This document shows positions 16,136 through 32,000 of a stretch of DNA of 32,000 bases, piece by piece. The stretch is from an uncultured Methanobrevibacter sp. (GTDB taxonomy: Archaea > Methanobacteriota > Methanobacteria > Methanobacteriales > Methanobacteriaceae), in assembly GCF_902801725.1 (NCBI RefSeq), contig NZ_CADCJB010000013.1:11302-43301 (forward strand). Direction: 5' to 3'. The notes below the pieces were generated by a model. It was not told the DNA's origin. It saw only the letters and a list, made by a program, of their open reading frames with translations, and ran no database searches. Every line of letters begins with the position of its first letter. The first letter of the stretch is position 1. The translations under genes were made by a program, and so were the position numbers.

Positions 16136-17035
16136 TTGGAAAAACCACAACTGATTAATTTTATAGCTAAGGTAATGGAGGACTCTGGTTTCAAGGTTTA
16201 TAAGAATTTTAAAACCTCTCAGAAAGTTATAGATATATATGCTATATTGCCAACTACTATTGGGGATTTTGGAGTTGTTGTAGCATGTAAAAACTATGAT
16301 AAAGACTTTGAAATTGGAGTGGATGTTTTAAAAGAGATGGAAGAAGTTGGAGAAAGTTTAAAGGCATCTAAAGTAACTATTGTTTCATCTTCTTATTTTT
16401 CAAGTCAGGCAACTAATTATGCGCTTCGAAAAAACATTAAATTGGTAGATAGGGATAACCTGCTTGAACTTGCCAAAAAATATCAGGACAGAACTTCCCA
16501 AACAACTCTTGACAACACTCCATATGATGGCGGAGCTTCTGCTTATATTGATGAGGAATATCCGGAATACAGTTATGATGCTTCTGACATGGAATATCTG
16601 ATGCAAAGAAGAGACCAGAATCCTGTTGTCTACAAAAACAGTCTTTACAGGGAAGTTGGTGATAACCGCTCTGGAGGAATTTCTTCATTATTTAATAGGG
16701 GAGTCAATACTGCCAGAGGTGGCGGTTATGGCCACACAACATTATATAACTATAATCGGGGATCAAATTTCAGTAATTCCCCATTTTTCGTACTGATTCA
16801 AAATCCGATAGTAATGGTTATTGTGGTTGTTATTGTTTCATTTCTCCTTTCATTCATTGCAGGCAATCTTTTGAAGATGGATGCTGGAATTTCAGGTTTA
16901 ATTGAAATGCTTACTGCTTTAATTTTATCTTATGGTTTGTCCTTTTATGCAGATAGAAATAGTGATTTTATTGTTAAAGGAACATTCATATTCTTTGTTT
17001 CATTGATAATATTAATTGTATTAATTTTTATTTAA
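16136..17035 (+). CDS. Membrane-tethered protein with an N-terminal Mrr-cat-like (PD-(D/E)xK restriction-endonuclease fold) domain
   Basis: FIAKVMEDSGFKV...IDIYA...VVVACKNY...KVTIVSSSYFSSQATNYALRKNIKLVDRDNLLEL matches the Mrr N-terminal catalytic-domain layout. A G/N/Y/R-rich linker and 3 C-terminal TM helices follow. TTG start preceded by GGGTGGA. Confidence 0.65.
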   Translation: MEKPQLINFIAKVMEDSGFKVYKNFKTSQKVIDIYAILPTTIGDFGVVVACKNYDKDFEIGVDVLKEMEEVGESLKASKVTIVSSSYFSSQATNYALRKNIKLVDRDNLLELAKKYQDRTSQTTLDNTPYDGGASAYIDEEYPEYSYDASDMEYLMQRRDQNPVVYKNSLYREVGDNRSGGISSLFNRGVNTARGGGYGHTTLYNYNRGSNFSNSPFFVLIQNPIVMVIVVVIVSFLLSFIAGNLLKMDAGISGLIEMLTALILSYGLSFYADRNSDFIVKGTFIFFVSLIILIVLIFI

Positions 17036-18084: not shown

Positions 18085-19440
18085 TTATCCTTCAAGTTCC
18101 TTGGCGGATATGGTCAGGTTTCCTCCAAAGTCAGGCATTGCAGCCACATGTGTGTGAACATAGCTTGCAAGTGTGTTTCTGCATATGAATCCATCCTGGT
18201 TGTTGTATGAGCCTTTTCCTCTTAGGATATCGAATGCCAGTTTGTGGTCGATGTTTGTGGAATCAACCAGTACCTTTGAATAATGGAACTCATGGCCATG
18301 GAATTTTTCACCTTTTTTGGATATGATGTTGTCCTCTTTGACTTCGGCAATGGTGTACTTCAGTGCCTGCACCCTATCTGTTAGAATTGCCTTGTAAGGA
18401 TATACATTTACAACTTTATCTTCGTGGATGGAATTCATAAGATACATTAAACCACCACATTCGGCAAAAATAGGCCTATCTTCCAGGTGGAAAGTATGGA
18501 TTTCTTGAAGCATTCTTTCATTTGCACTAAGCTCTTTTGAAAAGAGTTCGGGATATCCTCCTCCAATATACAATCCGTCTACATCGGGCAACCCTTCATC
18601 GTTTAATGGTGAAAAATATTCTATTTTAGCATTGTTTGCTTCCAATGATTCAATATTTTCCTTATAATAAAAATTGAACACTTCATCATATGCCACTCCG
18701 ATTTTAACTTTCTGCTTATTTAGTTTATTCCAGATGGGAACGATATTTGATGTAATCTTCGGAGCTTCTTTTGCAATTTCCACCAGTCTGTCCAAATCGA
18801 TTGAATTCTTTATTACTTCAGACCAGATGTCAATAAATTTGAGAGAATTTTCTTTTTCTCGAGCAGGAACAAGGCCTAAATGCCTTTCTTCAATTGATAT
18901 GGAATCATCACGAATAATCCCTCCGATAACTTCGGTTTTTGTTATTTCTTCAATTGATCTCTTTGTTTTTTCGTAGTGTGCCTTGTTTTTAACCTTGTTC
19001 AGGATAACTCCTGCAATATTTATTTCAGGATCCAATGCCTTAAAGCCCAAAACCAAAGCTGCGGCGCTTTTGACCAAACTTCTTGAGTTTATGATTAGGA
19101 TAACCGGTGCCTTTAGGGATTTTGCTATTGAAGCTGTACTTCCGATATCGTTGACAGAATCGATTCCCTCATAAAGTCCCCGAACACCTTCGATTACAGC
19201 AATGTCCTTTCCATCCATAGCTTTCAGATAGGAGTCTCTCACCTGTCCGGATTCCATAAAAAAAGAATCCAAGTTTCTGGATACATTACCGGTAGCTAAT
19301 GTATGGTAAGACGGGTCTATATAATCAGGTCCAACTTTAAATGGTTGAACATTGTATTTTTCACTTAAAGCTTTCATAATCCCGGTAGATATTGTGGTTT
19401 TTCCAACAGCACTACCAGTCCCTGCTAAAATAATTCTCAT
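18085..19440 (-). CDS. cbiA: Tetrapyrrole a,c-diamide synthase (cobyrinate or Ni-sirohydrochlorin a,c-diamide synthase)
   Basis: P-loop [14 protein letters not shown]-terminal GATase domain with the nucleophile box [11 protein letters not shown] and HGHEFHYS. The start is taken at ATG 19440 (MRIILAG...) rather than 19473. The CbiA and CfbB paralogues cannot be told apart by eye. Confidence 0.88.
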
Positions 19441-19538
19441 ATTTAGTAATTTGCATCTTCTTTTTATAAACAATTATTGTATAAATCATTTTATATAATA
19501 TTAAAAATAAAATTTAAACCATAATATATGGTGATTAA

Positions 19539-21362: not shown

Positions 21363-21419
21363 TTATATTTACAAATAAAAACATATTATAAAATGTTATT
21401 ATATAACGGAGGAAATTTA

Positions 21420-22670
21420 ATGGACCCAATGTACAGAATAGGAGAAGCTCTTATTGGAGATGGACCTGAATTGGCTCACGTTGATTTATTAATCGGTGAT
21501 AAATTCGGACCTGTTGGTCAAGCTTTTGCTAATGGATTATCCAATTTATCTGTTGGACACACTCCATTGACAAGTGTAATCAGACCAAACTTAATGACTA
21601 AACCAGCTACTTTAATTATTCCTAAAGTAACTGTTGGAGATTTGGAAGATGCAAGTAAAATCTTTGGACCTGCACAAACCGCTGTTGCAAGAGCAGTAGC
21701 TGATGCAGTTGAAGACGGTTACATTCCAAAAGATATTGTAGAAGATATCGTTATTAACGTAAGCGTATTTATTGATCCTTCTGCAAAAGATTTCAGAAAA
21801 ATATATCAATATAACTACGGCGCAACCAAGTTAGCTATCAGAAGAGCTATGGAAAACTATCCATCCATCGACAAAGTGCTTGCAGAAAAAGACCGTGGAA
21901 CTCACCCAATCATGGGATTCAAAGTCAAAAAACTTTGGTCACCACCATACTTGCAAGTTGCACTTGACCTTGATAATGAAGCTGCAATGGAAAGAATCAT
22001 CAGCGATTTGCCTGACAATGACAGAATTTTACTTGAAGCAGGTACTCCGCTCGTTAAAAAATTCGGTGTCGGAATCATCGGTAAAATCAGAGCATTACGT
22101 CCTGATGCATTCATTATTGCTGACTTGAAAACCTTGGATGTTGGTCGTGTAGAAGTTAAAATGGCAGCAGATGAAACTGCAGATGCAGTTGCAATCTCCG
22201 GTCTAGGTACTGTAGAATCTATCGCTAAAGCTATTCACGAAACCCAAAAACAAGGTATTTACTCTATCCTCGATATGATGAATGTAGCTGAATTCGAGAA
22301 AAAATTAGCCAAACTTCCTAAAGACTTAAAACCAGATATTGTTTTATTACACAGAAATGTGGATATGGAAACCTACAGGGCAGAACATGGTGAAGACACT
22401 AGCGACATGACCGAATGGGGTAATATTAAAGATATTAAAGCTGCACTTGGTCCTAAAGGTCTCATTGCTGTTGCTGGAGGAATCAAACCTAATAATGTTG
22501 AAGAAGCAATCGGTAAAGGTGCAAACATCATTATTGCAGGAAGATACATAATCGGTTCAAGAGATGTAAGAAGAGCTGCACAAGACTTCTTAGAACACTT
22601 TGACCCAGATCCAGACAACATGAGACTTGCTATGGATGAAGATGAAAATATTGAAGTGAAAGACGACTAG
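21420..22670 (+). CDS. fae-hps: Bifunctional formaldehyde-activating enzyme / 3-hexulose-6-phosphate synthase (Fae-Hps)
   Basis: N-terminal Fae domain ([22 protein letters not shown]) fused to an OMP-decarboxylase-fold Hps domain ([20 protein letters not shown]...GRYI). GGAGG lies upstream of ATG 21420, preferred over 21393. Confidence 0.88.
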
Positions 22671-22725: not shown

Positions 22726-23007
22726 ATGGGATTTTGTAATTCATGTGGAAGACCAATCGTAAGGGAAGATTACGGTACTAACAAGGATGGTAGTCCAAAC
22801 GATGAATTTTGTATAGACTGTTATCAGAATGGTGAATATACGGAGCCAGATATTACTCTTAATGAAATGATTGTAAGAAAAACCAAAGAAATGATGGAAA
22901 AAAATCCTAGATTGGCGGAAACACAGGCAACAGGTATTACTGCGATGTTCATTCCTGGCTTGAAAAGATGGAACCCTGAGTTTCAGGATGATTACAAGAC
23001 TCTTTAA
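22726..23007 (+). CDS. Putative zinc-ribbon domain protein
   Basis: CNSCGRP...(GT.KDGS)...FCIDCYQNGEYTEPDITLNEMI matches the putative zinc ribbon layout (CxxC...CxxC). SD AAGGAG upstream. Confidence 0.65.
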   Translation: MGFCNSCGRPIVREDYGTNKDGSPNDEFCIDCYQNGEYTEPDITLNEMIVRKTKEMMEKNPRLAETQATGITAMFIPGLKRWNPEFQDDYKTL

Positions 23008-23858
23008 TTGCCACCATTTAAAATAAATTCTTTAACTTTATTGGCGATGTATTCATCGTGGCTTCTATTTGTTTTTATGTTATAGATTTCTTCTTGTAAA
23101 TCATTATATTTATCAACTAAATCATTATATTCAAGACGTAGGGAATCGTAATCTTTTTCTAAATCTTCATTAAGCTCATAAATCTCTGCGTAACTGGTTT
23201 TTGTACTGAGATTTTCATGCTTTAGCTGATCATATTTGGAAGTGATCTTATCATAGCTGCTCTTGATGTTTTGATGCTCTTCTTTTAAGTTGGAACATTT
23301 GCTTTTCAGGTTTTTGTTTTCTTCTTTAATGCTTGAATACTTGGTTTTGAGATTCTCATTTTCGGTTTTCATATTGACGAATTTGGTTTTGAGATTTTCA
23401 TTTTCTATAATTAATTTTGAATGTTTGTCTCTGATGTTTTCATTCTCTTTTTTCAAATTGTCAATATTGTTTTCGTTTAAGGTATTGTATTTGTTTTCAA
23501 TTTCAGTTATGGCATCATTTTTTGCAGCAATTTCAGCTTTTAACTCTTCAATTTCTTTTTTATATTCTAAAGTAGATGGATTAACGTTATTTTCAAGTTG
23601 ATCTCTCAATTCTTTCACTTCCTGTACATACAAATAATTAGCTATTTTTAAAGATTCACTTTCTTCCTCTCTACTTTTAAAGGTTTCAATTTCGCTTTGG
23701 GGTATGATTAATACTTCTTCCTGGTTATTGTAAATGTCTTCATTTTTAGGAACGGTGATTTGAATTTGTTCTGTTGTGTATTTCTTTCTCTCACCGTTTT
23801 TCAAAGTTCTATGATATTCCCTTGAATATTTTTTTACAATACCTTTTCCTACTTTCAT
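23004..23858 (-). CDS. Hypothetical coiled-coil protein with a basic N-terminus and 14-aa tandem repeats
   Basis: Long E/K/N-rich heptad-like sequence. The N-terminal 40 aa are basic (MKVGKGIVKKYSREYHRTLKNGERKKY). No recognisable enzymatic motif. Confidence 0.6.
   Translation of the reverse strand: MKVGKGIVKKYSREYHRTLKNGERKKYTTEQIQITVPKNEDIYNNQEEVLIIPQSEIETFKSREEESESLKIANYLYVQEVKELRDQLENNVNPSTLEYKKEIEELKAEIAAKNDAITEIENKYNTLNENNIDNLKKENENIRDKHSKLIIENENLKTKFVNMKTENENLKTKYSSIKEENKNLKSKCSNLKEEHQNIKSSYDKITSKYDQLKHENLSTKTSYAEIYELNEDLEKDYDSLRLEYNDLVDKYNDLQEEIYNIKTNRSHDEYIANKVKEFILNGGN
23238..23447 (-). repeat. Five tandem 42-nt (14-aa) in-frame repeats inside the coiled-coil gene
   Basis: The units are ENENIRDKHSKLII, ENENLKTKFVNMKT, ENENLKTKYSSIKE, ENKNLKSKCSNLKE and EHQNIKSSYDKITS. 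At DNA level, TTGGTTTTGAGATT(C/T)TCATTTTC occurs at 23341-23363 and 23383-23405. Confidence 0.75.
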
Positions 23859-23954: not shown

Positions 23955-23996
23955 AGTAATACTTTTTTTCGATATTTGTGAAATAAGTAATACTTT
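23955..23996 (+). promoter_or_regulatory. Two exact copies of palindromic motif AGTAATACT(TT) upstream of the CobN-like operon; candidate operator overlapping the promoter
   Basis: AGTAATACTTT at 23955-23965 and 23986-23996, 31 bp apart. The core AGTA-A-TACT is a 4-1-4 inverted repeat. The second copy runs directly into the TATA-like TTTAAATATA (23994-24003), about 48 nt before the start codon. Confidence 0.4.
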
Positions 23997-24050: not shown

Positions 24051-27000
24051 GTGGGTAATATTATGTTTTGTTTAAAAAATAAAAAGTATTTTTGCGTATT
24101 AATTTTATTAATAACGATTTTTATCATTCCTTATTCATTTGCATTGGATAATTCCACTTCAGATGATTTGCCTATTTCAAGTGATGATAATGCATTATTA
24201 AATGATAATATTGAAGAATCGGTTGGCAACGATAATCTGATGAGTGTAGATTCATCCAAATCTCAAAATATTACTTTATTTATTGTAAGCGACAATCCAG
24301 GGACTAATATTTTGGATAAAGCTAGCAGTGAATTAAGCAGTTCCCAAAATTTAAGTAATATTAATTTGGTTGTTCGCAGCGGTGAACAGATAAAGGAAAT
24401 GAGTGATTTTGAATTAATAAGTCTTCTTTCTTCCAGCGACGGATTTGTCGGTGAATGGATAAGTAGTGATGTAGATTCAGTTTTAACAAATGTTTTGGGT
24501 AAATATCCTGAATTGTCAAATAAGGAATTGTTTCTTATATTGGAACCGCCTTCAGGCAAAATGAACTCCGGTTCCAGTTCAATAGGTTTAATCAGAAACA
24601 ATACAATAAATTATCAAAAGATTTTCGCATCATTTTCAGACCAGGAATTGATTTCATATTTTGAAAACACAAAAAGAGGCAAATACTATACTGATGTTTA
24701 TAATTACATTGACAGGAGCGCTACAAAATTTGACCCACTGTTCAATCAGATGGTTCTTTATAAGGATATAAACGATAAAGAAAATCTTAAAAATCAAATA
24801 TTATACGCATTAAACTTTTTAGGCACATCTTTTGAAGTCAATGCACCGACATTTACAGGAGTAAAACAGTATGGAATTTATAGGGACAGATGGTATTCCC
24901 TTGAAGAGTATATTGCAGAATTTTTCAATCCGAATAATTCCAGAACTGTCGGAATATTGGAAAGTACAATGTATGTTGAATCTCAGCAATTGCATCCATG
25001 CTACAACATTATCGAATCATTGGAATCAAGAGGATATAATGTAATCCCTATCTTTGCTGCAGGGGGGTCTGCTGAACAATTGAAAGTGATGATTGAATCC
25101 TGGACCAGTGCAAAGACTGACTATTCCGGATTTTTAAGAAATTCATCCAATTATGATATTTATGTGGATGCAATAGTGTCCATGGTTGCTTATGGTGTTG
25201 GGGGTCAGAATTTTTCCAATGCTACAAACTTCTTTGAACAGGTGGGCGTGCCTGTATTCAGGGCAGTACACTCTGATTATGTTTCCAATGAGATGTGGGA
25301 ATTGGGATCTACCGGTCTTACAACAGAAAAAAGTGACAAATGGTGGCACATTACCATTGCCGAAACTCAGGGAATAATTGATGCAACATTTGTTGGCGGT
25401 CAATCAAAGTACATTTCCAGCAGGACAGGAGCTCAGATTACTACCTACATACCTCACGCCAGAAACATTGATTTGCTGGCTGACAGAATAGATTCCTGGG
25501 TTGATTTAAAATACACTTCAAATATCGATAAGCTAATCTCAATAATCTATTACAATTATCCTCCTGGAAAACAGAATATCGGTTCAAGTTACCTGGATAC
25601 AATAACCAGTATTTACAACATGCTGATAACTTTAAAAAATGCCGGATATGATGTTGGCGAGTTGCCAGCTAATGTTTCTGAACTTGAAGATTTAATGCTT
25701 AAGTGCGGTATTAATGTAGCTACCTGGGCACCGGGAGAGCTTGAAAAATTGGCTAACCAGTCAGGCGTTACATTACTGCCGGTTAAAGAATATACCAAAT
25801 GGTTCAATTCATTGGATGAAATTGTTAAAATACAGGTCACTGAAGGGCCTGTTGCTTACATAGGCGAGCTTTCAAGACGTTCAGTTGAGCTAAACTACAC
25901 AGTAACAATCGCAGATACAATTGATGATTGGTACAATCAGGTTGTTGCCCTGCTTCCAGAGGAAAATGCCGATAAGTCTAAAAGCGTTTTAAACAATATC
26001 GTATCAAGCTTAAAAAATTATACAAAGACTCAGGATGCAAAATATTATAAGCTGTTCTTAAGGTACTTTGAAGAATTCAAAAAGTTAAATATTTCCGGAT
26101 TAAACGGTTGGGGTAATGCTCCGGGCAATGTAATGGTTGTTAATAGAAACGGAGTTGATTATTTTGTCATACCTGGCTTAACTTATGGAAATGTATTTAT
26201 CGCCCCTGAACCTCAAAGGGGATGGGAATCTGACATTGAAAACTTATATCACTGTACTGCAGTAGCTCCAACCCATCAGTATCTGGCGGCTTACTACTAT
26301 ATGCAGACCAAATACCACAATGCAATGATTTTCGTCGGAAGGCACGCTACACATGAATGGCTTCCTGGAAAGGAAATTTTACTATCATCCACTGATTACG
26401 GATCAGTTGTGGTAGGTGATGTCCCGCAACTGTACTTCTATATTGCAGATGGTTTGGCTGAAGCTATTCAGGCAAAAAGAAGAGGTTTTGCAGTTATCAT
26501 TTCACATTTGACTTCTCCAATGTCTTACACCCATTTATATGGTAACTTGACCGTTGCGGCTAGTCTGGTTAAGGAATATTCTGCTAATCCAAATGTTCGT
26601 ACTGCTAGTGAATTGCGCAATCTAATTATAAAAAATGATTACTACACTAATTTGGGCCTTTCAAAAGGAGAAGTAATGAATATCTCTGATACCTTACTTG
26701 TTGAGAAGGTAAATAAGTTTTTAGTGGAGATGCAGTCTACCTTGTATCCATTGGGGCTTCATGCATTGGGTCAGTCCTGGAGTGAACAGGACTTGGCAAG
26801 CACAGTTTCAGCAATGTTGTCTTATGATTATGTTCTTGATAATAATCAGGGTGTTTTAAATTTATTCAGTGAACTTTCAAGCTACTATTATTCAAAAGGA
26901 TATAGCCAGCTATCCGCATTTGAAAGGGAATTTATTTTAAACAAATCCTATGATATTGTAAAGGCACTGATTTACTGGGATGTAGACACGGTCAATAGCC

Positions 27001-29114
27001 TGTTAATAAGTCAAAATCAAAAATTCAACAATCCTACATTTTTTGCCTGCCTTGAATTGGCTAAAAAGTATATAGGCCTTATCAATTTCAGTGTTTCAAA
27101 CGAATTGGATGCAATGCTCGACGGATTAAACGGCAGATATGTTCCAGTTGGTGAAGGTGGAGAACTTGTAATAAAACCTGCAATTCTTCCGACAGGTAAA
27201 AACATGTTCCAGGACCAATCATCTGAGCTTCCGACAATGGATGCATGGGAATATGCGAAAAATTTGGCTTTATTAACACTTGCTGATTTAAATGACACAA
27301 CAGAGAAGATTATCATGGGTATCTGGTGTGTAGAAACCGCAAGAGATGACGGAGCGTTGGTTTCAACCGTTCTTTACTTGTTGGGTATGAAACCTGTCTG
27401 GACAGATTCATCAAGTGCGGGTTATGACGATGAAGGAAATCCGACAGGTAAAAAAGTGGGTGCAATGCCTGAAGTTATTAAACTGGATGATTTGACCCGT
27501 CCTGCCGGTTGGGCCAAAAAAAGAATTGACGTGACTGTAATAACTAGTGGTTTATTCAGGGATTTATACTCATCTCAATCAATTCTTATGGATAATGCTT
27601 ACCGTGTTGCGCTTGCAAGGTCCTATCTGACATTGATTAATAATAATGCATTAATGAACTCTAAAAATGGTAATCAATTGCGCGAGGCTCTTGAAGGTGT
27701 AATGCAAAGTATCAGCTATTATGGTATTTATAATGAGCCATTGGATTCCAATTATGTGGCACAGCACTGGATTGAAGATACTTTATTCTATTTAAGTCAG
27801 GGCTATAATGCAACTTATGCAGGCGAATGTGCAATAACAAGAATATTTGCACCTCCAAATGGTGATTATGGTGCCGGAATATCAAAATTAGTATCAATGT
27901 CATGGACATGGAACGATACTAGTGAACTTGCAGACTTTTACCTTGGAAGAATGGGTAACATGTATTCAAAAAATTATTGGGGAGATACAAACCCATTGGT
28001 ATTCCTGAGGGCTCTGTCAAACTCAGACACAATTGTGGCCAGTCGTAATACCAACCAATACGGTGTACTCGACAACGACGACTTCTTTGATTATTGGGGA
28101 GGTTTGTCAATGACTGTAGAAAATATTTCCGGAAAAGCTCCTAAATTCAATGTATTGATGTATTCAGATAAAAACAATGCATACATTTCATCTTTGGAGG
28201 AAGTAATGTATAAGGAAATCGCCGCAAGATATGATAATCCTGACTGGATTAAAGGAATGATGAAAGAGGGTTACAGCGGTGCTCGTTACATGTCAAATAA
28301 GTTTGTAAGTAATTTGCATGGATGGCAGGTAACAAGACCATCAGCCGTATCAAATGACTTGTGGAATAGAATTTACAATACTTATTACAATGATAAATAC
28401 AATATTGGAGTTAAAGATTGGCTAATGAGTGGAAACAATGCATATTCACTTATTTCCATGAGTGGAACAATGCTTACAACAATCCATGATGGTTATTGGA
28501 AGGCAGATAAGGCTACAATTAGCGATATAGCTAATACATGGGCTCAAGCAACTGTTCAAAATGGTGTGGCCTGTTGTGATTGCAGTTGCGGTAATATTGC
28601 AATGATGCAATGGGCTGTCCAATATGTCAATCCGGATATTTTAGCACAACTGCTTCCTAAATTATATGAAGCAACCAAAAATCCGGTATTTAAGAATAAT
28701 ACTCAATCAACTCAGCCGCCTGAAACTGATATAAAAGATAATCCGAAGGAAGCTTCAACTCAAAATCCTGTAAAGGGATCAACTTCATCTTCTACTATTA
28801 AAACAAATTCCAGCTCCACAACCACTCAAACTACTGCTCAAAGCGGAAGCAATGCTCAGGGTGATGCCTTTTCAAATGTTGGTGCTGGAAGTGAATCAGT
28901 TCAGGCTGGAAGTTCATCTGCAGAGGGAGCAGATGTCAAGAAAGCAGTTGAAATAAATCCAATATCCTCTCAATCAGCAAGTGAAGTAGGATTGTCAATA
29001 GTAGCTGTATTGGCTATTTTATGCTTGATTATGGTTGTGGCTGTTGGATACTTTAGAAATAATGATAATAAAGATAAAGTTCAAGATTTAGATAAGCTAT
29101 TTAATGAAAGATAG
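24051..29114 (+). CDS. Exported, membrane-anchored CobN/Mg-chelatase-family (class I chelatase large-subunit-like) protein
   Basis: CobN/ChlH signatures GRHATHEWLPGKE (26337-26375) and LDGLNGRYVPVGEGGELVIKPAILPTGKNMF (27117-27209), plus QYGVLDNDDFFDYWGG. N-terminal signal peptide KNKKYFCVLILLITIFIIPYSFA|LD. Ser/Thr-rich stalk (about 28695-28985). C-terminal TM VGLSIVAVLAILCLIMVVAVGYF followed by a basic tail. An alternative start is ATG 24063. Confidence 0.9.
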   Translation: MGNIMFCLKNKKYFCVLILLITIFIIPYSFALDNSTSDDLPISSDDNALLNDNIEESVGNDNLMSVDSSKSQNITLFIVSDNPGTNILDKASSELSSSQNLSNINLVVRSGEQIKEMSDFELISLLSSSDGFVGEWISSDVDSVLTNVLGKYPELSNKELFLILEPPSGKMNSGSSSIGLIRNNTINYQKIFASFSDQELISYFENTKRGKYYTDVYNYIDRSATKFDPLFNQMVLYKDINDKENLKNQILYALNFLGTSFEVNAPTFTGVKQYGIYRDRWYSLEEYIAEFFNPNNSRTVGILESTMYVESQQLHPCYNIIESLESRGYNVIPIFAAGGSAEQLKVMIESWTSAKTDYSGFLRNSSNYDIYVDAIVSMVAYGVGGQNFSNATNFFEQVGVPVFRAVHSDYVSNEMWELGSTGLTTEKSDKWWHITIAETQGIIDATFVGGQSKYISSRTGAQITTYIPHARNIDLLADRIDSWVDLKYTSNIDKLISIIYYNYPPGKQNIGSSYLDTITSIYNMLITLKNAGYDVGELPANVSELEDLMLKCGINVATWAPGELEKLANQSGVTLLPVKEYTKWFNSLDEIVKIQVTEGPVAYIGELSRRSVELNYTVTIADTIDDWYNQVVALLPEENADKSKSVLNNIVSSLKNYTKTQDAKYYKLFLRYFEEFKKLNISGLNGWGNAPGNVMVVNRNGVDYFVIPGLTYGNVFIAPEPQRGWESDIENLYHCTAVAPTHQYLAAYYYMQTKYHNAMIFVGRHATHEWLPGKEILLSSTDYGSVVVGDVPQLYFYIADGLAEAIQAKRRGFAVIISHLTSPMSYTHLYGNLTVAASLVKEYSANPNVRTASELRNLIIKNDYYTNLGLSKGEVMNISDTLLVEKVNKFLVEMQSTLYPLGLHALGQSWSEQDLASTVSAMLSYDYVLDNNQGVLNLFSELSSYYYSKGYSQLSAFEREFILNKSYDIVKALIYWDVDTVNSLLISQNQKFNNPTFFACLELAKKYIGLINFSVSNELDAMLDGLNGRYVPVGEGGELVIKPAILPTGKNMFQDQSSELPTMDAWEYAKNLALLTLADLNDTTEKIIMGIWCVETARDDGALVSTVLYLLGMKPVWTDSSSAGYDDEGNPTGKKVGAMPEVIKLDDLTRPAGWAKKRIDVTVITSGLFRDLYSSQSILMDNAYRVALARSYLTLINNNALMNSKNGNQLREALEGVMQSISYYGIYNEPLDSNYVAQHWIEDTLFYLSQGYNATYAGECAITRIFAPPNGDYGAGISKLVSMSWTWNDTSELADFYLGRMGNMYSKNYWGDTNPLVFLRALSNSDTIVASRNTNQYGVLDNDDFFDYWGGLSMTVENISGKAPKFNVLMYSDKNNAYISSLEEVMYKEIAARYDNPDWIKGMMKEGYSGARYMSNKFVSNLHGWQVTRPSAVSNDLWNRIYNTYYNDKYNIGVKDWLMSGNNAYSLISMSGTMLTTIHDGYWKADKATISDIANTWAQATVQNGVACCDCSCGNIAMMQWAVQYVNPDILAQLLPKLYEATKNPVFKNNTQSTQPPETDIKDNPKEASTQNPVKGSTSSSTIKTNSSSTTTQTTAQSGSNAQGDAFSNVGAGSESVQAGSSSAEGADVKKAVEINPISSQSASEVGLSIVAVLAILCLIMVVAVGYFRNNDNKDKVQDLDKLFNER

Positions 29115-29125
29115 TAGGTGTTTTA

Positions 29126-29833
29126 ATGGATGCAATTAATATTTTATGGCAACTTGGGATATTGTCAGCGGTTTTAATTTTTGGAGTCAAATTGGGCCTT
29201 GCTACAGGCCTTGCGAACATGTCAAAAAAGTATTTGGCATTGGTGTCAATAGGATATGGTGGGGGAGTTTTAGTACTCACAGAAATTTCTTCATTCTTCA
29301 CAGATCAAATCACTGATTTGATTTATACTTATAACTTTGAATTTTTCCTGATTATGGCGATAATCATGATTTTAGCGGGAATATTTACAATAAGGGAGTA
29401 TAAGGTATTTGAAAAAAATACCACTGCAGCCACTTGTATGGCGGTCGTTGCTCCATGTCCTTGTTGTTTTGGTTCTATTATTGTGAGTATAATGCTTGTA
29501 GCGCCTACTGTAGGTTTAGGGTTGATGAATTTAAGTGTAATCGTAGCTTTGGCGTTAGTTTTAACAATTGTTGTAACTTATTACGCATCAAATTACCTCG
29601 TAAAATTCATTAATAAGCCTTATCCAATAGTATTGGGCAATTTCATGTTCTTTTTGGGAATTTACTTCCTATTGTCTGCATTGTTCTTGCCGAATATTAC
29701 TGCAATGATTCAAAATCCAATGGAAGCAATATCAATATCATCTCCATATTCTCTGATTGGAGCTTTAGTATTGGTGCTTGTTATAGTGGCTATCGGCGGA
29801 ATAATCTCTAGGAGAAACAGTAATTTTAATTAG
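29126..29833 (+). CDS. Polytopic membrane protein (DUF2162-like predicted transporter; HmuT-like position) with an intramembrane CPCC motif
   Basis: About 7 TM helices. C-x6-CPCC (TCMAVVAPCPCCFGS, 29435-29467) sits within a hydrophobic segment. SD AGGTG (29116-29120), 11 nt after the CobN-like stop. The family assignment is from memory. Confidence 0.75.
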   Translation: MDAINILWQLGILSAVLIFGVKLGLATGLANMSKKYLALVSIGYGGGVLVLTEISSFFTDQITDLIYTYNFEFFLIMAIIMILAGIFTIREYKVFEKNTTAATCMAVVAPCPCCFGSIIVSIMLVAPTVGLGLMNLSVIVALALVLTIVVTYYASNYLVKFINKPYPIVLGNFMFFLGIYFLLSALFLPNITAMIQNPMEAISISSPYSLIGALVLVLVIVAIGGIISRRNSNFN

Positions 29834-29841
29834 GTGATTTA

Positions 29842-30486
29842 ATGGTAACTACAATTCCTGGAAGTGAAATATTAACATCAACATTGAATATGATTTCACA
29901 AAGTCTGCAGATTCCTGTAATCATATTTCTGGTGGTTTTTGCAGTCTTTGCAGTACTTGCAATCGGAGGATTGATTTCTGAGTATACTTCAAGAAAGAAA
30001 ATCACTCCCGAGCTGATTGAAGAATTGATTTATTCAATATCAAATGCAACTTCTTTGGATGAAATAAAAAACGTTATTAAAAACGCTAAAATTTATGAAT
30101 CTCAAAAAGTTGTTTTAATTAAGATTTTACGTGCAAATTCCCTAACTCCAGAGTCAAGACATGCACTTGCTAAGAAACTGGTTGAATTTGAAGAAAATAA
30201 ATTTGCAAAGTCAATCGAAAGAACCGATGTTGTCACGCGTATAGGACCTACATTGGGTTTGATGGGTACATTAATTCCTATGGGTCCGGGTCTTGCTGCA
30301 TTGGGAGCTGGTGATGTAAATACGTTGGCTAATGCTATTATTGTTGCTTTTGATACAACTGTTGTAGGTATTGGTGCTGGAGCTGTAGCTTATTTTGTAT
30401 CTAAAGTAAGGCGCAGATGGTATGAAGAGTACTTGTCCAATTTGGATGCGCTTGCAGATGCATTGCTTGATAAGTTAAATCAATAA
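29842..30486 (+). CDS. MotA/TolQ/ExbB-family proton-channel protein
   Basis: Three-TM layout with a long loop after TM1. Signature RIGPTLGLMGTLIPMGPGL and TM3 AFDTTVVGIGAGAVAYF. A perfect SD AGGTGAT (29832-29838) overlaps the upstream stop. Confidence 0.85.
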   Translation: MVTTIPGSEILTSTLNMISQSLQIPVIIFLVVFAVFAVLAIGGLISEYTSRKKITPELIEELIYSISNATSLDEIKNVIKNAKIYESQKVVLIKILRANSLTPESRHALAKKLVEFEENKFAKSIERTDVVTRIGPTLGLMGTLIPMGPGLAALGAGDVNTLANAIIVAFDTTVVGIGAGAVAYFVSKVRRRWYEEYLSNLDALADALLDKLNQ

Positions 30487-30492
30487 GAGGTT

Positions 30493-30831
30493 TTGGTGAT
30501 GGTTCGAGATAAATCTAAAAAACGATTTTCAGAAGGTGAAGAGGACCCGATGGCTGGAACTTCGAATCTTGTAGATGCAATGCTTGTTATTGCAGTTGGC
30601 TTATTGATTTTCGTTGTTATAAGTTGGAATATGCAGAGTGTGGTTTTCCAGGATAATCAAAATCCGCAGAAAGCTATTGAGCAGTCTTCACCTGATGTAA
30701 CGGAAGTCAGTGAAGGACAGACATTGAATGAAACTCCGGAATCTTCAAACAGTTCTGGTCAGGGTTATATGGAAATGGGTAAAGTCTATAAAGATCCTTC
30801 AACGGGCAAGTTGATTATGGTGGAAGGTTAA
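30493..30831 (+). CDS. Bitopic ExbD/TolR-like protein (DUF2149-like; HmuV-like position)
   Basis: Single TM NLVDAMLVIAVGLLIFVVI resembles the ExbD/TolR helix (..IDVMLVLLIIF..), with Asp retained at 30574-30576. Short polar extracytoplasmic tail. The start is ambiguous (TTG 30493 / GTG 30496 / ATG 30499), after AAGAGG (30485-30490). Confidence 0.7.
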   Translation: MVMVRDKSKKRFSEGEEDPMAGTSNLVDAMLVIAVGLLIFVVISWNMQSVVFQDNQNPQKAIEQSSPDVTEVSEGQTLNETPESSNSSGQGYMEMGKVYKDPSTGKLIMVEG

Positions 30832-30833
30832 TA

Positions 30834-30986
30834 AGTAATACTTTTTACTTTTGGATTTGCTCCATTAGTATTACTTTTTTCCTCTTTTTTTTAAATAATT
30901 ATTACTTTTTTTTAAAAAAACTTTACTTTAATATATAGTTTTCTCTTTTTTAGAGCAAATAAAAAGTTTTATAAGAGTATTACTTT
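30834..30986 (+). promoter_or_regulatory. Cluster of the same AGTA-W-TACT(TTT) motif between the operon end and the adhesin-like gene
   Basis: AGTAATACTTT at 30834-30844; AGTATTACTTT at 30867-30877 and 30976-30986; degenerate ATTATTACTTT at 30898-30908. Spacings are 33, 31 and 78 bp. The last copy runs into the TATA-like TTTATAAT (30984-30991), about 85 nt upstream of ATG 31075. Confidence 0.4.
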
Positions 30987-31074: not shown

Positions 31075-32000
31075 ATGAAAAGTAAGAGTTTAATATTTTC
31101 AATATTTTTGGTTTTCATAATTGTTATTAGTGTCAGCGCCATATCCGCTCAGGATGTGGACGATGCTATCTCTACAACTGACGATGAAACAGTAATTGGG
31201 GATTCTGAACAAGTTTCAGGTACTGTTTCAGGAGATGTGGATGTTACAACTGAAAATCCATGGACTACAAGTGGAGAATTAAGTTATGATATTCCTGCCG
31301 ATGCTAAGACAATTAAAAGTGCTGATGTTTATGTGAATGTTTATAGTGGTAGTGCAAAAAATACTCATGGTGCAAATGCAAATGTAAGTATTTCAACCGC
31401 TAATGGAAATGAAAGTTACTCTGAATCTTTATGGACTGAAGACGGTTCAGCTGACGGTACTGTTTACAAAGTAAATAATCATACTACCAAATGCTATTCC
31501 GATTTCATGGTTCATTATGATGTAACCAGTTTAGTTCAAGGATTAAATGGAAGTAATTTAAAGATTAAAGTCGATACATTTAAGATGGAAAATAAGTCAT
31601 TTGACGGTAGGATAAAACTAATCGGATTAGTTTTAGCTTATGATGATGGAGATGATGATGTAATCAATTATTTAATTGATGATAATCAAATTTGGACTAA
31701 TTCCAATATAACTATTCCTTTTAACACTTTATCATTTAATAATGTGTTTGAATCAAATCTGATTAATATTGCTCTTTCATCAGTTGATGGAACTTATAAA
31801 TTCAATAATGAATTTTTAACAGATTCCAAACATAAATCCGGTAATTATTATCAATATAATGAATGGAATGTAACTAATTATTTCAAAAACGGTCAAAACA
31901 ATGAATTGAATGTAATTCCTGGTCAAGGTTCCTACGGATCTTCTTATAAAAGTGTTCTTTCAGTATTGACCGGAAAATCTGTTATAAATTCAGCTGCTAT
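31075..32000 (+). CDS. Secreted adhesin-like protein, N-terminal part (continues beyond the window; not in the ORF track because no stop is reached)
   Basis: I translated from ATG 31075 to the window end and found no stop. Signal peptide MKSKSLIFSIFLVFIIVISVSAISAQD. The beta-rich domain (ADVYVNVYSGSAKN..., FDGRIKLIGLVLAYDDG) resembles, from memory, the DUF3344-type N-terminal domain of Methanobrevibacter adhesin-like proteins. Confidence 0.7.
   Translation, partial: MKSKSLIFSIFLVFIIVISVSAISAQDVDDAISTTDDETVIGDSEQVSGTVSGDVDVTTENPWTTSGELSYDIPADAKTIKSADVYVNVYSGSAKNTHGANANVSISTANGNESYSESLWTEDGSADGTVYKVNNHTTKCYSDFMVHYDVTSLVQGLNGSNLKIKVDTFKMENKSFDGRIKLIGLVLAYDDGDDDVINYLIDDNQIWTNSNITIPFNTLSFNNVFESNLINIALSSVDGTYKFNNEFLTDSKHKSGNYYQYNEWNVTNYFKNGQNNELNVIPGQGSYGSSYKSVLSVLTGKSVINSAA

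Follow-up and report, generated by a model that had tools for sequence, protein, structure and literature searches.

The window analyzed here, a 32,000-nucleotide stretch of an uncultured Methanobrevibacter sp. (contig NZ_CADCJB010000013.1, positions 11,302 to 43,301 of the forward strand), contains a tight operon of four genes that we designate S, T, U and V and whose intergenic gaps measure 6-11 bp. S, at the head of the operon, encodes a large protein of the CobN/ChlH/HmuS superfamily and is followed by genes for a DUF2162 membrane protein (T), a member of the MotA/TolQ/ExbB family (U) and a small DUF2149 protein (V). Copies of the palindrome AGTAWTACT precede S as well as the gene for a DUF3344 surface protein located downstream of V. 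The coordinates of these features are listed in Table 1.

Architecture and predicted topology of S

The frame of S is the sole long open reading frame (ORF) in its part of the window and ends with a stop codon at 29114 on the + strand. An earlier reading made from the DNA letters without database searches, hereafter the sequence-only reading, had translated it from GTG 24051 as a protein of 1687 amino acids (aa). While the frame itself is real, this GTG appears to be an alternative start and ATG 24063, which yields 1683 aa, the likelier one, because most called homologues start at MFCLKNKK. The architecture described in the following is unaffected by this choice.

A Kyte-Doolittle scan of the 1683 aa protein revealed exactly two hydrophobic segments, at aa ~9-27 and aa ~1641-1664. 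The first of these displays the signal-peptide-like features that had been pointed out before, namely KNKK, a hydrophobic core and SFA|LD. An acidic run follows, and the layout as a whole recurs in 113 close homologues. The n-region of S (MFCLKNKK) carries three K/R and the 20 residues past SFA|LD contain 5-6 D/E and no K/R; the corresponding means for the homologues are 2.8 K/R ahead of the core, followed by 5.1 D/E vs 0.16 K/R in 20 residues, and most of them have an xFA site at the core end. Identity among close homologues was 0.40 for this N-terminal segment and 0.86 for the body, a low N-terminal conservation that matches the behaviour of cleaved signal peptides and makes cleavage probable. 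At its full length S is indeed longer than typical CobN, as had been stated, with solved CobN and ChlH chains comprising 1230-1351 aa. As a separate observation, the window also encodes a small S26-family signal peptidase (847-1269), an enzyme of the kind expected to process the predicted signal peptide.

At the other end of the protein, hydropathy and composition scans bore out the positions previously given for the Ser/Thr-rich segment, the C-terminal helix and the charged tail. Ser and Thr make up 40% of aa 1551-1600, and identity among the homologues amounts to 0.68 in this stalk and 0.85 in the stretch preceding the transmembrane (TM) helix. N-x-S/T sequons were not enriched in S (23 vs 20.5 +/- 4.1 in shuffles), and the "glycosylated stalk" that had been proposed is, as far as can be judged from sequence, only a low-complexity linker. 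The C-terminal helix is conserved like the body (0.84 vs 0.86), which suggests that it engages in specific helix contacts and does not serve as a passive anchor.

Since S possesses two hydrophobic segments, both of its short ends should lie on the same side of the membrane. The positive-inside pattern is clear at the N-terminus and weaker at the C-terminus, where 2 K/R are found before the TM helix and 4 after it. To place this architecture in its family, the body of S was searched against one representative per 50%-identity cluster; the best 150 were taken, of which 131 were near full length. This comparison detected an N-terminal hydrophobic segment in 106, a C-terminal TM helix in 118 and both in 95 of the 131 representatives. 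The architecture is therefore no oddity of one gene but a hallmark of the clade. The earlier premise of a cytoplasmic location is valid for CobN and ChlH; it leaves out the HmuS branch, which is membrane-anchored and periplasmic. HmuS has been described as membrane-bound with a predicted single TM helix at each terminus (Nath et al., PMC12583661, 2025), and as carrying a signal peptide as well as N- and C-terminal helices and being located in the inner membrane with exposure to the periplasm in E. coli (PMC13227078, 2026). With the two hydrophobic segments, the charge pattern, the like architecture of the 95 representatives and the periplasmic location of HmuS all pointing the same way, the body of S most likely faces outward, as had been suggested.

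No genes for ChlI/ChlD, CobS/CobT or a TonB-dependent receptor were found among the window ORFs scanned. The predicted topology and the lack of an AAA+ partner among these ORFs therefore make it unlikely that S takes part in the de novo synthesis of B12 or F430, and scavenging is the better reading, in line with the earlier conclusion. That view of S as a chelatase-like surface protein can stand, but it had overlooked the T, U and V partner genes, the proposed operator common to S and the DUF3344 gene, and the connection with nickel limitation, all of which are presented below.

Table 1. Positions of the features discussed in the text (window positions, except for the last row, which refers to locus L084 of Methanothermobacter marburgensis)
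Feature	Position	Strand	Basis or remark
S, membrane-anchored CobN/ChlH/HmuS-superfamily protein, 1683 aa	24063..29114	+	PF02514 match, solved relatives
S, signal-peptide-like segment, aa 1-27	24063..24143	+	KNKK n-region, hydrophobic core, SFA|LD
S, acidic disordered linker, aa 28-67	24144..24263	+	predicted local distance difference test score (pLDDT) <30, D/E-rich, identity 0.27
S, chelatase-like head, neck and body, aa ~68-1530	24264..28652	+	H761, LDNDDFFDYWGG, ACCDCSCGN
S, Ser/Thr/Gln/Gly-rich low-complexity linker, aa ~1545-1636	28695..28970	+	ends in conserved pre-TM GADVKKAVEINPISSQSASE
S, C-terminal TM helix, aa ~1641-1664	28983..29054	+	hydropathy, identity 0.84
S, short charged tail YFRNNDNKDKVQDLDKLFNER, predicted cytoplasmic	29055..29114	+	begins RNNDNKDK, 4 K/R
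T, DUF2162 polytopic membrane protein	29126..29833	+	invariant P-C-P-x-C (PCPCC, aa 110-114) in hydrophobic segment
U, MotA/TolQ/ExbB-family proton-channel protein	29842..30486	+	PF01618 2e-10, above cut-off
V, DUF2149, single TM with invariant Asp (SNLVDAMLVIAVG)	30493..30831	+	
Two exact AGTAWTACT copies, 31 bp apart	23955-23963, 23986-23994	.	108 and 77 bp ahead of ATG 24063; proposed operator
Three exact AGTAWTACT copies (30834, 30867, 30976) and degenerate copies ~31-33 bp apart	30834..30984	.	upstream of DUF3344 gene
DUF3344 surface protein, signal peptide, Big-like domains	31075..32000, runs past window end	+	
MTBMA_c10580, FmdE-domain surface protein, 964 aa	L084 6335-9229		

Family placement of S and its membrane partners

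S matched the Pfam family CobN-Mg_chel (PF02514) with an E-value of 7e-227 and 756 bits (cut-off 24.5), while the CobN equivalog level was not reached in NCBIfam (best model NF004645, 738 bits vs a cut-off of 1619; TIGR02257, 447 vs 822). Among solved structures, the haem de-chelatase HmuS of B. thetaiotaomicron (9d26, 2e-91) was closest to S in sequence and outranked ChlH and CobN, and the C-terminal domains of S alone matched HmuS with 2e-44 vs about 1e-21 for CobN and ChlH. The superfamily His of the HFG(T/A)HG loop is represented by H761 (VGRHATHEW), which aligns with His-538 of HmuS and is a His in 124 of the 131 representatives. The HmuS motif LSLDHxxEFMGG is absent from S, which has the CobN-type motif LDNDDFFDYWGG (aa 1336-1347) instead, with Asp at both the His-1209 and the Glu-1212 positions of HmuS. 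With respect to this second-histidine position, 78 of the 131 representatives belong to the Asp-Asp type, while 29 share the Asp-His type of HmuS.

Closer examination of the other residues that characterize HmuS gave a similar picture. In the family alignment, which is of low certainty in the head region, the haem site-1 ligands of HmuS are missing from S (FVGEW for Met-79 and AYGVGG for His-254), whereas the two ligand positions read GMG/GHG and PHGR in HmuS-type representatives. S also does not contain the Met-rich domain IV insertion, as none of its 60-aa windows holds at least 7 Met, compared with windows holding 10 in an HmuS-type representative. The N-terminal half of S aligned better with ChlH than with HmuS by sequence, again with a head alignment of low certainty. 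An AlphaFold model of aa 28-700 (pLDDT 76) was matched by Foldseek to ChlH (5e-14) and CobN (2e-11) over 520-580 columns spanning head, neck and domain III, and HmuS was not among the top matches. Judged by these motifs and alignments, S is no HmuS in the strict sense; HmuS is one branch of a larger anchored family, and S belongs to its larger, uncharacterised Asp-Asp branch. Most Asp-Asp members carry a C-terminal Cys/His cluster such as TCCHHTCGN or ACCDHTCNN, whereas the HmuS type keeps only C-x4-C-G-N. The corresponding cluster in S, ACCDCSCGN (aa 1503-1511, window 28569-28595), might bind a metal or serve as a redox site outside the cell.

The products of the hmu genes have been described as a membrane permease-like protein (HmuT), an ExbB homologue (HmuU) and a protein of no known family (HmuV; PMC13227078). 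Going by these published descriptions and by one paper that names DUF2149 together with CobN, T, U and V match the families of HmuT, HmuU and HmuV. Besides its match to PF01618, U showed weak similarity to TolQ. V contains its invariant Asp within NLVDAMLV and has a conserved hairpin-like C-terminal stretch, GYxEMGKVYKDPxTGKLIMV; at a permissive Pfam threshold it matched DUF2149 only. Based on its TM-Asp motif and its adjacency to U, V is proposed to be an ExbD/TolR-like partner of U. Both ExbD and TolR have an essential Asp in a similar helix. For T, a sequence search against solved structures returned no relative, and all 120 homologues listed were at least 86% identical. The Asp in the TM helix of V and the P-C-P-x-C of T are invariant in archaea and bacteria alike.

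The association of the four genes extends well beyond the window. In a genome scan with a narrower alignment, which returned related loci mostly from Methanobacteriales, the S-T-U-V order was kept in most of 80 related loci, including those of Methanobrevibacter (every paralogue clade, 54-93% identity), Methanobacterium and Methanothermobacter, and it was T-U-V-S in Methanosphaera. At least two S-T-U-V clusters were present per genome, as exemplified by loci L005 and L026 of a single genome. The four families are likewise clustered in bacterial relatives. One bacterial locus (L086, 971-11775) encodes, in this order, a TonB-dependent receptor, DUF2162, MotA_ExbB and DUF2149 proteins, a BtuF-CbiZ fusion, an Asp-Asp-type CobN-like protein and CbiK, and thus represents a form of the module devoted to corrinoid salvage. 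Neither hmuY nor hmuR was found among the window ORFs scanned or in the archaeal loci. Previous work reported many archaeal homologues with an unclear role and a lack of complete hmu operons in archaea (Nath et al., PMC12583661).

A shared palindrome and the response to nickel limitation

The palindrome AGTAWTACT was first noticed as a repeated AGTAATACT in intergenic DNA. It occurs five times in the 32-kb window vs 0.4 times expected, a number reached in 0 of 100 shuffles, and all five copies are located upstream of S or the DUF3344 gene, with the copy at 23986 abutting a TATA-like box (TTTAAATATA). The palindrome is conserved across Methanobacteriales, and 57 of 81 related loci have it ahead of S. 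Across 1.54 Mb of related loci, 226 of 264 copies fell into the 4.2% of bases that make up the 300 bp preceding S, T or DUF3344, which corresponds to a density of 3.5/kb vs 0.19/kb in other intergenic DNA (76% A+T), an 18-fold difference. The preferred spacing between copies in the related loci was 32 bp. Several of the remaining copies precede hmd, an hcgG-like gene, a radical-SAM gene and a CbiM-family gene whose product starts with MHLPDG and which is followed by N-/Q-like genes. We take the MHLPDG start to be a NikM-type N-terminus, and the gene is likely a nikM-type nickel-uptake gene. Hmd and Hcg proteins rise at nickel scarcity (PMC3087415; PMC12350162). The AGTAWTACT boxes may form an operator next to the TATA box that is bound by a nickel-responsive regulator. 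No riboswitch or other RNA family of Rfam was detected in the window; predictions of sigma-70 promoters and terminators carry no information for archaeal DNA.

The second gene preceded by these boxes in the window is itself associated with S. A DUF3344 protein with a signal peptide adjoins S in most loci, either upstream or downstream, and Methanothermobacter and Methanobacterium have fusion proteins of ~2100 aa in which DUF3344 and CARDB domains form an N-terminal extension of S. The fusion, the adjacency and the shared operator argue that DUF3344 and S function jointly. No informative solved relative or literature was found for DUF3344.

Expression data are available for homologues of the operon in M. 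marburgensis. The gene order at its locus L084 is nicotianamine-synthase (NAS)-like genes, c10580, c10570-c10560-c10550, c10540, c10530, c10520, c10510 and c10500, with the MTBMA tags having been assigned via the annotations of c10510/c10500 and the masses given in the supplement. Among these, c10570/c10560/c10550 represent a CobN-like gene in three ORFs, c10540 encodes DUF2162, c10530 MotA_ExbB and c10520 DUF2149. From standard to nickel-limited conditions, published proteomics intensities (Nature 2025) increased from ~5.5e6 to ~2.1e8 (~35-fold) for the U homologue c10530, listed there as "Transporter", from 0 to ~1e6 (off to on) for the T homologue c10540, from ~1.9e7 to ~6.4e9 (~330-fold) for c10580 and from ~7e6 to ~2.4e9 (~300-fold) for a protein designated CobN1 (PMC12350162). 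CobN1, c10530 and c10580 did not rise under iron or H2/CO2 limitation, conditions under which c10540 was unquantified, and the authors drew no connection to an hmuSTUV-like module (PMC12350162). A search for CobN1 with a Methanothermobacter paralogue returned DUF3344-CARDB-CobN fusions.

AGTAWTACT is present upstream of the NAS-like gene and of c10580 in M. marburgensis, and degenerate copies occur upstream of S and T. In the surface protein c10580, a signal peptide and a Gly/Ser linker are combined with an "AYEV...TM...GFLRG" anchor that resembles the anchor of S. No NCBIfam match to an archaeosortase- or sortase-type C-terminal sorting signal was obtained for the anchors of either S or MTBMA_c10580. 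A C-terminal module consisting of an "[AS]YE[VI]"-type stretch, a TM helix and G-[YF]-[FL]-R is common to S proteins (window 28920-29114) and MTBMA_c10580 (L084 6335-9229). The NAS-like gene (two ORFs, L084 5175-5977), located upstream of the nickel-induced cluster with AGTAWTACT in front, hints at a metallophore.

Several other genes of the window deserve mention. CfbB (Ni-sirohydrochlorin a,c-diamide synthase of F430 synthesis; 18085-19473, - strand, NCBIfam 1e-191, above cut-off) is encoded 4.6 kb from S on the opposite strand with unrelated genes between. Divergent from S lies a gene for a 284-aa coiled-coil protein (23004-23858, - strand) that yielded sub-threshold matches only and is kept in close relatives. 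A fusion of Fae and an OMPdecase-family protein (formaldehyde-activating enzyme/hexulose-phosphate synthase-like, 21393-22670) is typical of methanogens, and an Mrr-type restriction endonuclease domain protein (16136-17035) weakly matched a NACHT-associated inactive endonuclease domain.

Interpretation and comparison with known systems

We favor the explanation, at a probability of roughly 55%, that S-T-U-V is a nickel-starvation-induced, proton-motive-force-coupled surface system that acquires a metal or metallo-tetrapyrrole and is the archaeal counterpart of the Bacteroidota hmuSTUV genes. S would be exported via its signal peptide, so that head, neck and body come to lie outside the cytoplasmic membrane, tethered by the flexible Ser/Thr-rich linker and the conserved C-terminal helix. 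This helix may contact T with its P-C-P-x-C as well as U and V, the putative ExbB/ExbD-like proton motor. In soluble chelatases of the class of S, an AAA+ ATPase does work on the big subunit; there is no ATP outside the cell, and the U/V proton motor is therefore proposed to take the place of this ATPase and to act on S and/or T. A nickel-responsive regulator, for which a NikR homologue would be the obvious candidate, would bind AGTAWTACT, and nickel scarcity would switch the operon on. The system could then capture external nickel as the free ion, as a metallophore complex or as a Ni- or Co-tetrapyrrole, and either the metal would be stripped for import or the whole ligand passed inward, while T may conduct metal or electrons through its P-C-P-x-C. 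Of this picture, the architecture, the synteny, the enrichment of the motif and the induction of homologues at nickel limitation are shown, whereas the topology, the coupling to the motor, the nature of the regulator and the substrate are inferred. Going further, S-T-U-V might be a self-contained, TonB-free machine of the cytoplasmic membrane in which a proton motor instead of an AAA+ ATPase drives an extracellular chelatase-type protein, and which in Methanobacteriales provides the missing high-affinity route for nickel during starvation, from external Ni-tetrapyrroles (F430) or nicotianamine-type complexes, with bacterial HmuU and HmuV perhaps likewise serving S and T and not the TonB-dependent receptor; this we regard as speculative and on balance doubtful.

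A number of observations weigh against the favored explanation. V had no match to ExbD/TolR families or to solved structures in sequence and profile searches, the AlphaFold model of T is too poor for use (pLDDT 49), and some S relatives have no adjacent T-U-V genes. The nickel data stem from another genus, in which the S next to T-U-V consists of three ORFs and was barely detected, and the strongly induced CobN1 (143 kDa) is known here from its proteomics entry and not from its sequence. The published proteomics furthermore covered nickel, iron and H2/CO2 limitation but not cobalt (PMC12350162), and two observations on the gene neighbourhoods of relatives point to cobalt. Bacterial Asp-Asp relatives are found in corrinoid-salvage loci, and a Methanobacterium relative of S neighbours genes for CbiZ and an MtrA-like corrinoid protein. 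Together with the CobN-type Asp-Asp motif in the active site of S and the large corrinoid requirement of methanogens, they make the salvage of external cobamides or cobalt complexes, in the manner of BtuS-type CobN homologues, the main rival explanation. This alternative is possible but not probable in our view: it is weakened by the palindrome that S has in common with hmd, the hcgG-like gene and the likely nikM-type gene, a set linked to nickel limitation (PMC12350162), and no corrinoid-salvage gene was found next to the S operon in the window. Separate paralogues may also serve separate metals.

Haem is another conceivable substrate, in which case S would be a functional HmuS orthologue that strips iron from external haem, leaves protoporphyrin IX and contributes to iron supply in the gut. 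This is supported by a haem-rich habitat, by the sequence match to HmuS, the top one of S among solved structures both overall (2e-91) and for the C-terminal domains (2e-44), and by an anchored architecture and partner-gene families that the two have in common. However, Met-79, His-254, His-1209, Glu-1212 and the Met-rich insertion, which define HmuS, are not found in S, whose N-terminal half is nearer to ChlH and CobN by sequence and fold. The U homologue of M. marburgensis moreover showed no response to iron limitation, and AGTAWTACT marks nickel-related and not iron genes, which leaves this explanation improbable. The loss of catalysis in favor of a structural or adhesive surface role would be in keeping with the wealth of adhesin-like proteins in Methanobrevibacter genomes and with the Big-like domains of the DUF3344 neighbour, but the body is the most conserved part of S (identity 0.86), distant relatives retain the Asp-Asp motif and the Cys cluster as well as the superfamily His, and the linkage to the membrane partner genes is conserved; we consider such a role very unlikely. 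Sources label S as "cobaltochelatase subunit CobN", and its strong family similarity and the gene for the F430 enzyme CfbB at a distance of 4.6 kb could be taken to indicate that S is the cytoplasmic CobN of such an ATP-dependent enzyme or else inserts nickel during F430 synthesis. This is hardly tenable given the predicted topology, the scores far below every NCBIfam equivalog cut-off (738 vs 1619 bits) and the failure to find ChlI/ChlD or CobS/CobT among the window ORFs scanned. B12 synthesis in methanogens follows the anaerobic route, which employs CbiX, and F430 is produced by means of CfbA. In addition, the archaeal homologues were reported to be unlinked to cob genes (Nath et al., PMC12583661).

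While the anchored architecture as such has already been published for HmuS, the presence of archaeal proteins in hmuSTUV-type modules without outer-membrane parts, the placement of S in a distinct Asp-Asp branch, the conserved operator and the tie to the nickel-starvation response are new. Several unexplained methanogen "CobN" genes thereby gain a testable reading as parts of a surface module with hmuTUV-type partners, an operator and a connection to nickel starvation. In natural settings methanogenesis is limited by the supply of nickel, since Mcr with its F430 and the [NiFe]-hydrogenases require this metal. If the favored explanation is true, a large surface protein for nickel supply would be an attractive vaccine or inhibitor target against methane formation by rumen and gut Methanobrevibacter. 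The persistent linkage of the four genes in cells that lack an outer membrane also bears on the role of HmuT, HmuU and HmuV in Bacteroidota.

Among known systems, the soluble chelatases share parts of S but not its setting. CobN (7c6o, 9uk9) has the same multi-domain fold and Asp-Asp at the second-histidine position of HmuS and ChlH (LDSDDYYQFEGG vs LDNDDFFDYWGG in S); unlike S with its export and anchor signals, it is a soluble protein of the cytoplasm whose partner is the CobS/CobT AAA+ ATPase. ChlH/BchH (4zhj, 6yt0) comes closest to the N-terminal half of S in both fold and sequence but is cytoplasmic or plastid-located, needs ChlI/ChlD and ATP and has His where S has Asp. The ExbB-ExbD, TolQ-TolR and MotA-MotB motors resemble U-V in that a MotA/TolQ/ExbB member is followed by a small single-TM protein with an Asp in its helix. 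In contrast to these motors, U-V lacks a TonB, TolA or peptidoglycan-binding partner as well as an outer membrane that it could energise, no similarity between V and ExbD/TolR is detectable outside the helix, and the proposed client is S, T or both.

The M. marburgensis cluster corresponds to the S locus in its S-T-U-V arrangement, which includes the U and T homologues c10530 and c10540, and in the upstream AGTAWTACT, and differs in belonging to another genus, in the split of S into three ORFs and in a partner with FmdE instead of DUF3344. Compared with HmuS of the Bacteroidota hmuYRSTUV genes (B. thetaiotaomicron, P. gingivalis), S is 220 aa longer, contains the Ser/Thr linker, has an N-terminal half that is nearer to ChlH/CobN and is found in a regulatory context of nickel rather than iron or haem, and its locus is devoid of hmuY and hmuR because there is no outer membrane. 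On the other hand, both proteins combine an N-terminal signal or TM segment with an extracytoplasmic body (predicted for S) and a C-terminal TM helix, both have the superfamily His (His-538 in HmuS) and the two Cys of the C-terminal C-x4-C-G-N, and each of the two genes is followed by partners from the same families, namely a membrane protein (DUF2162 for S), an ExbB homologue and DUF2149.

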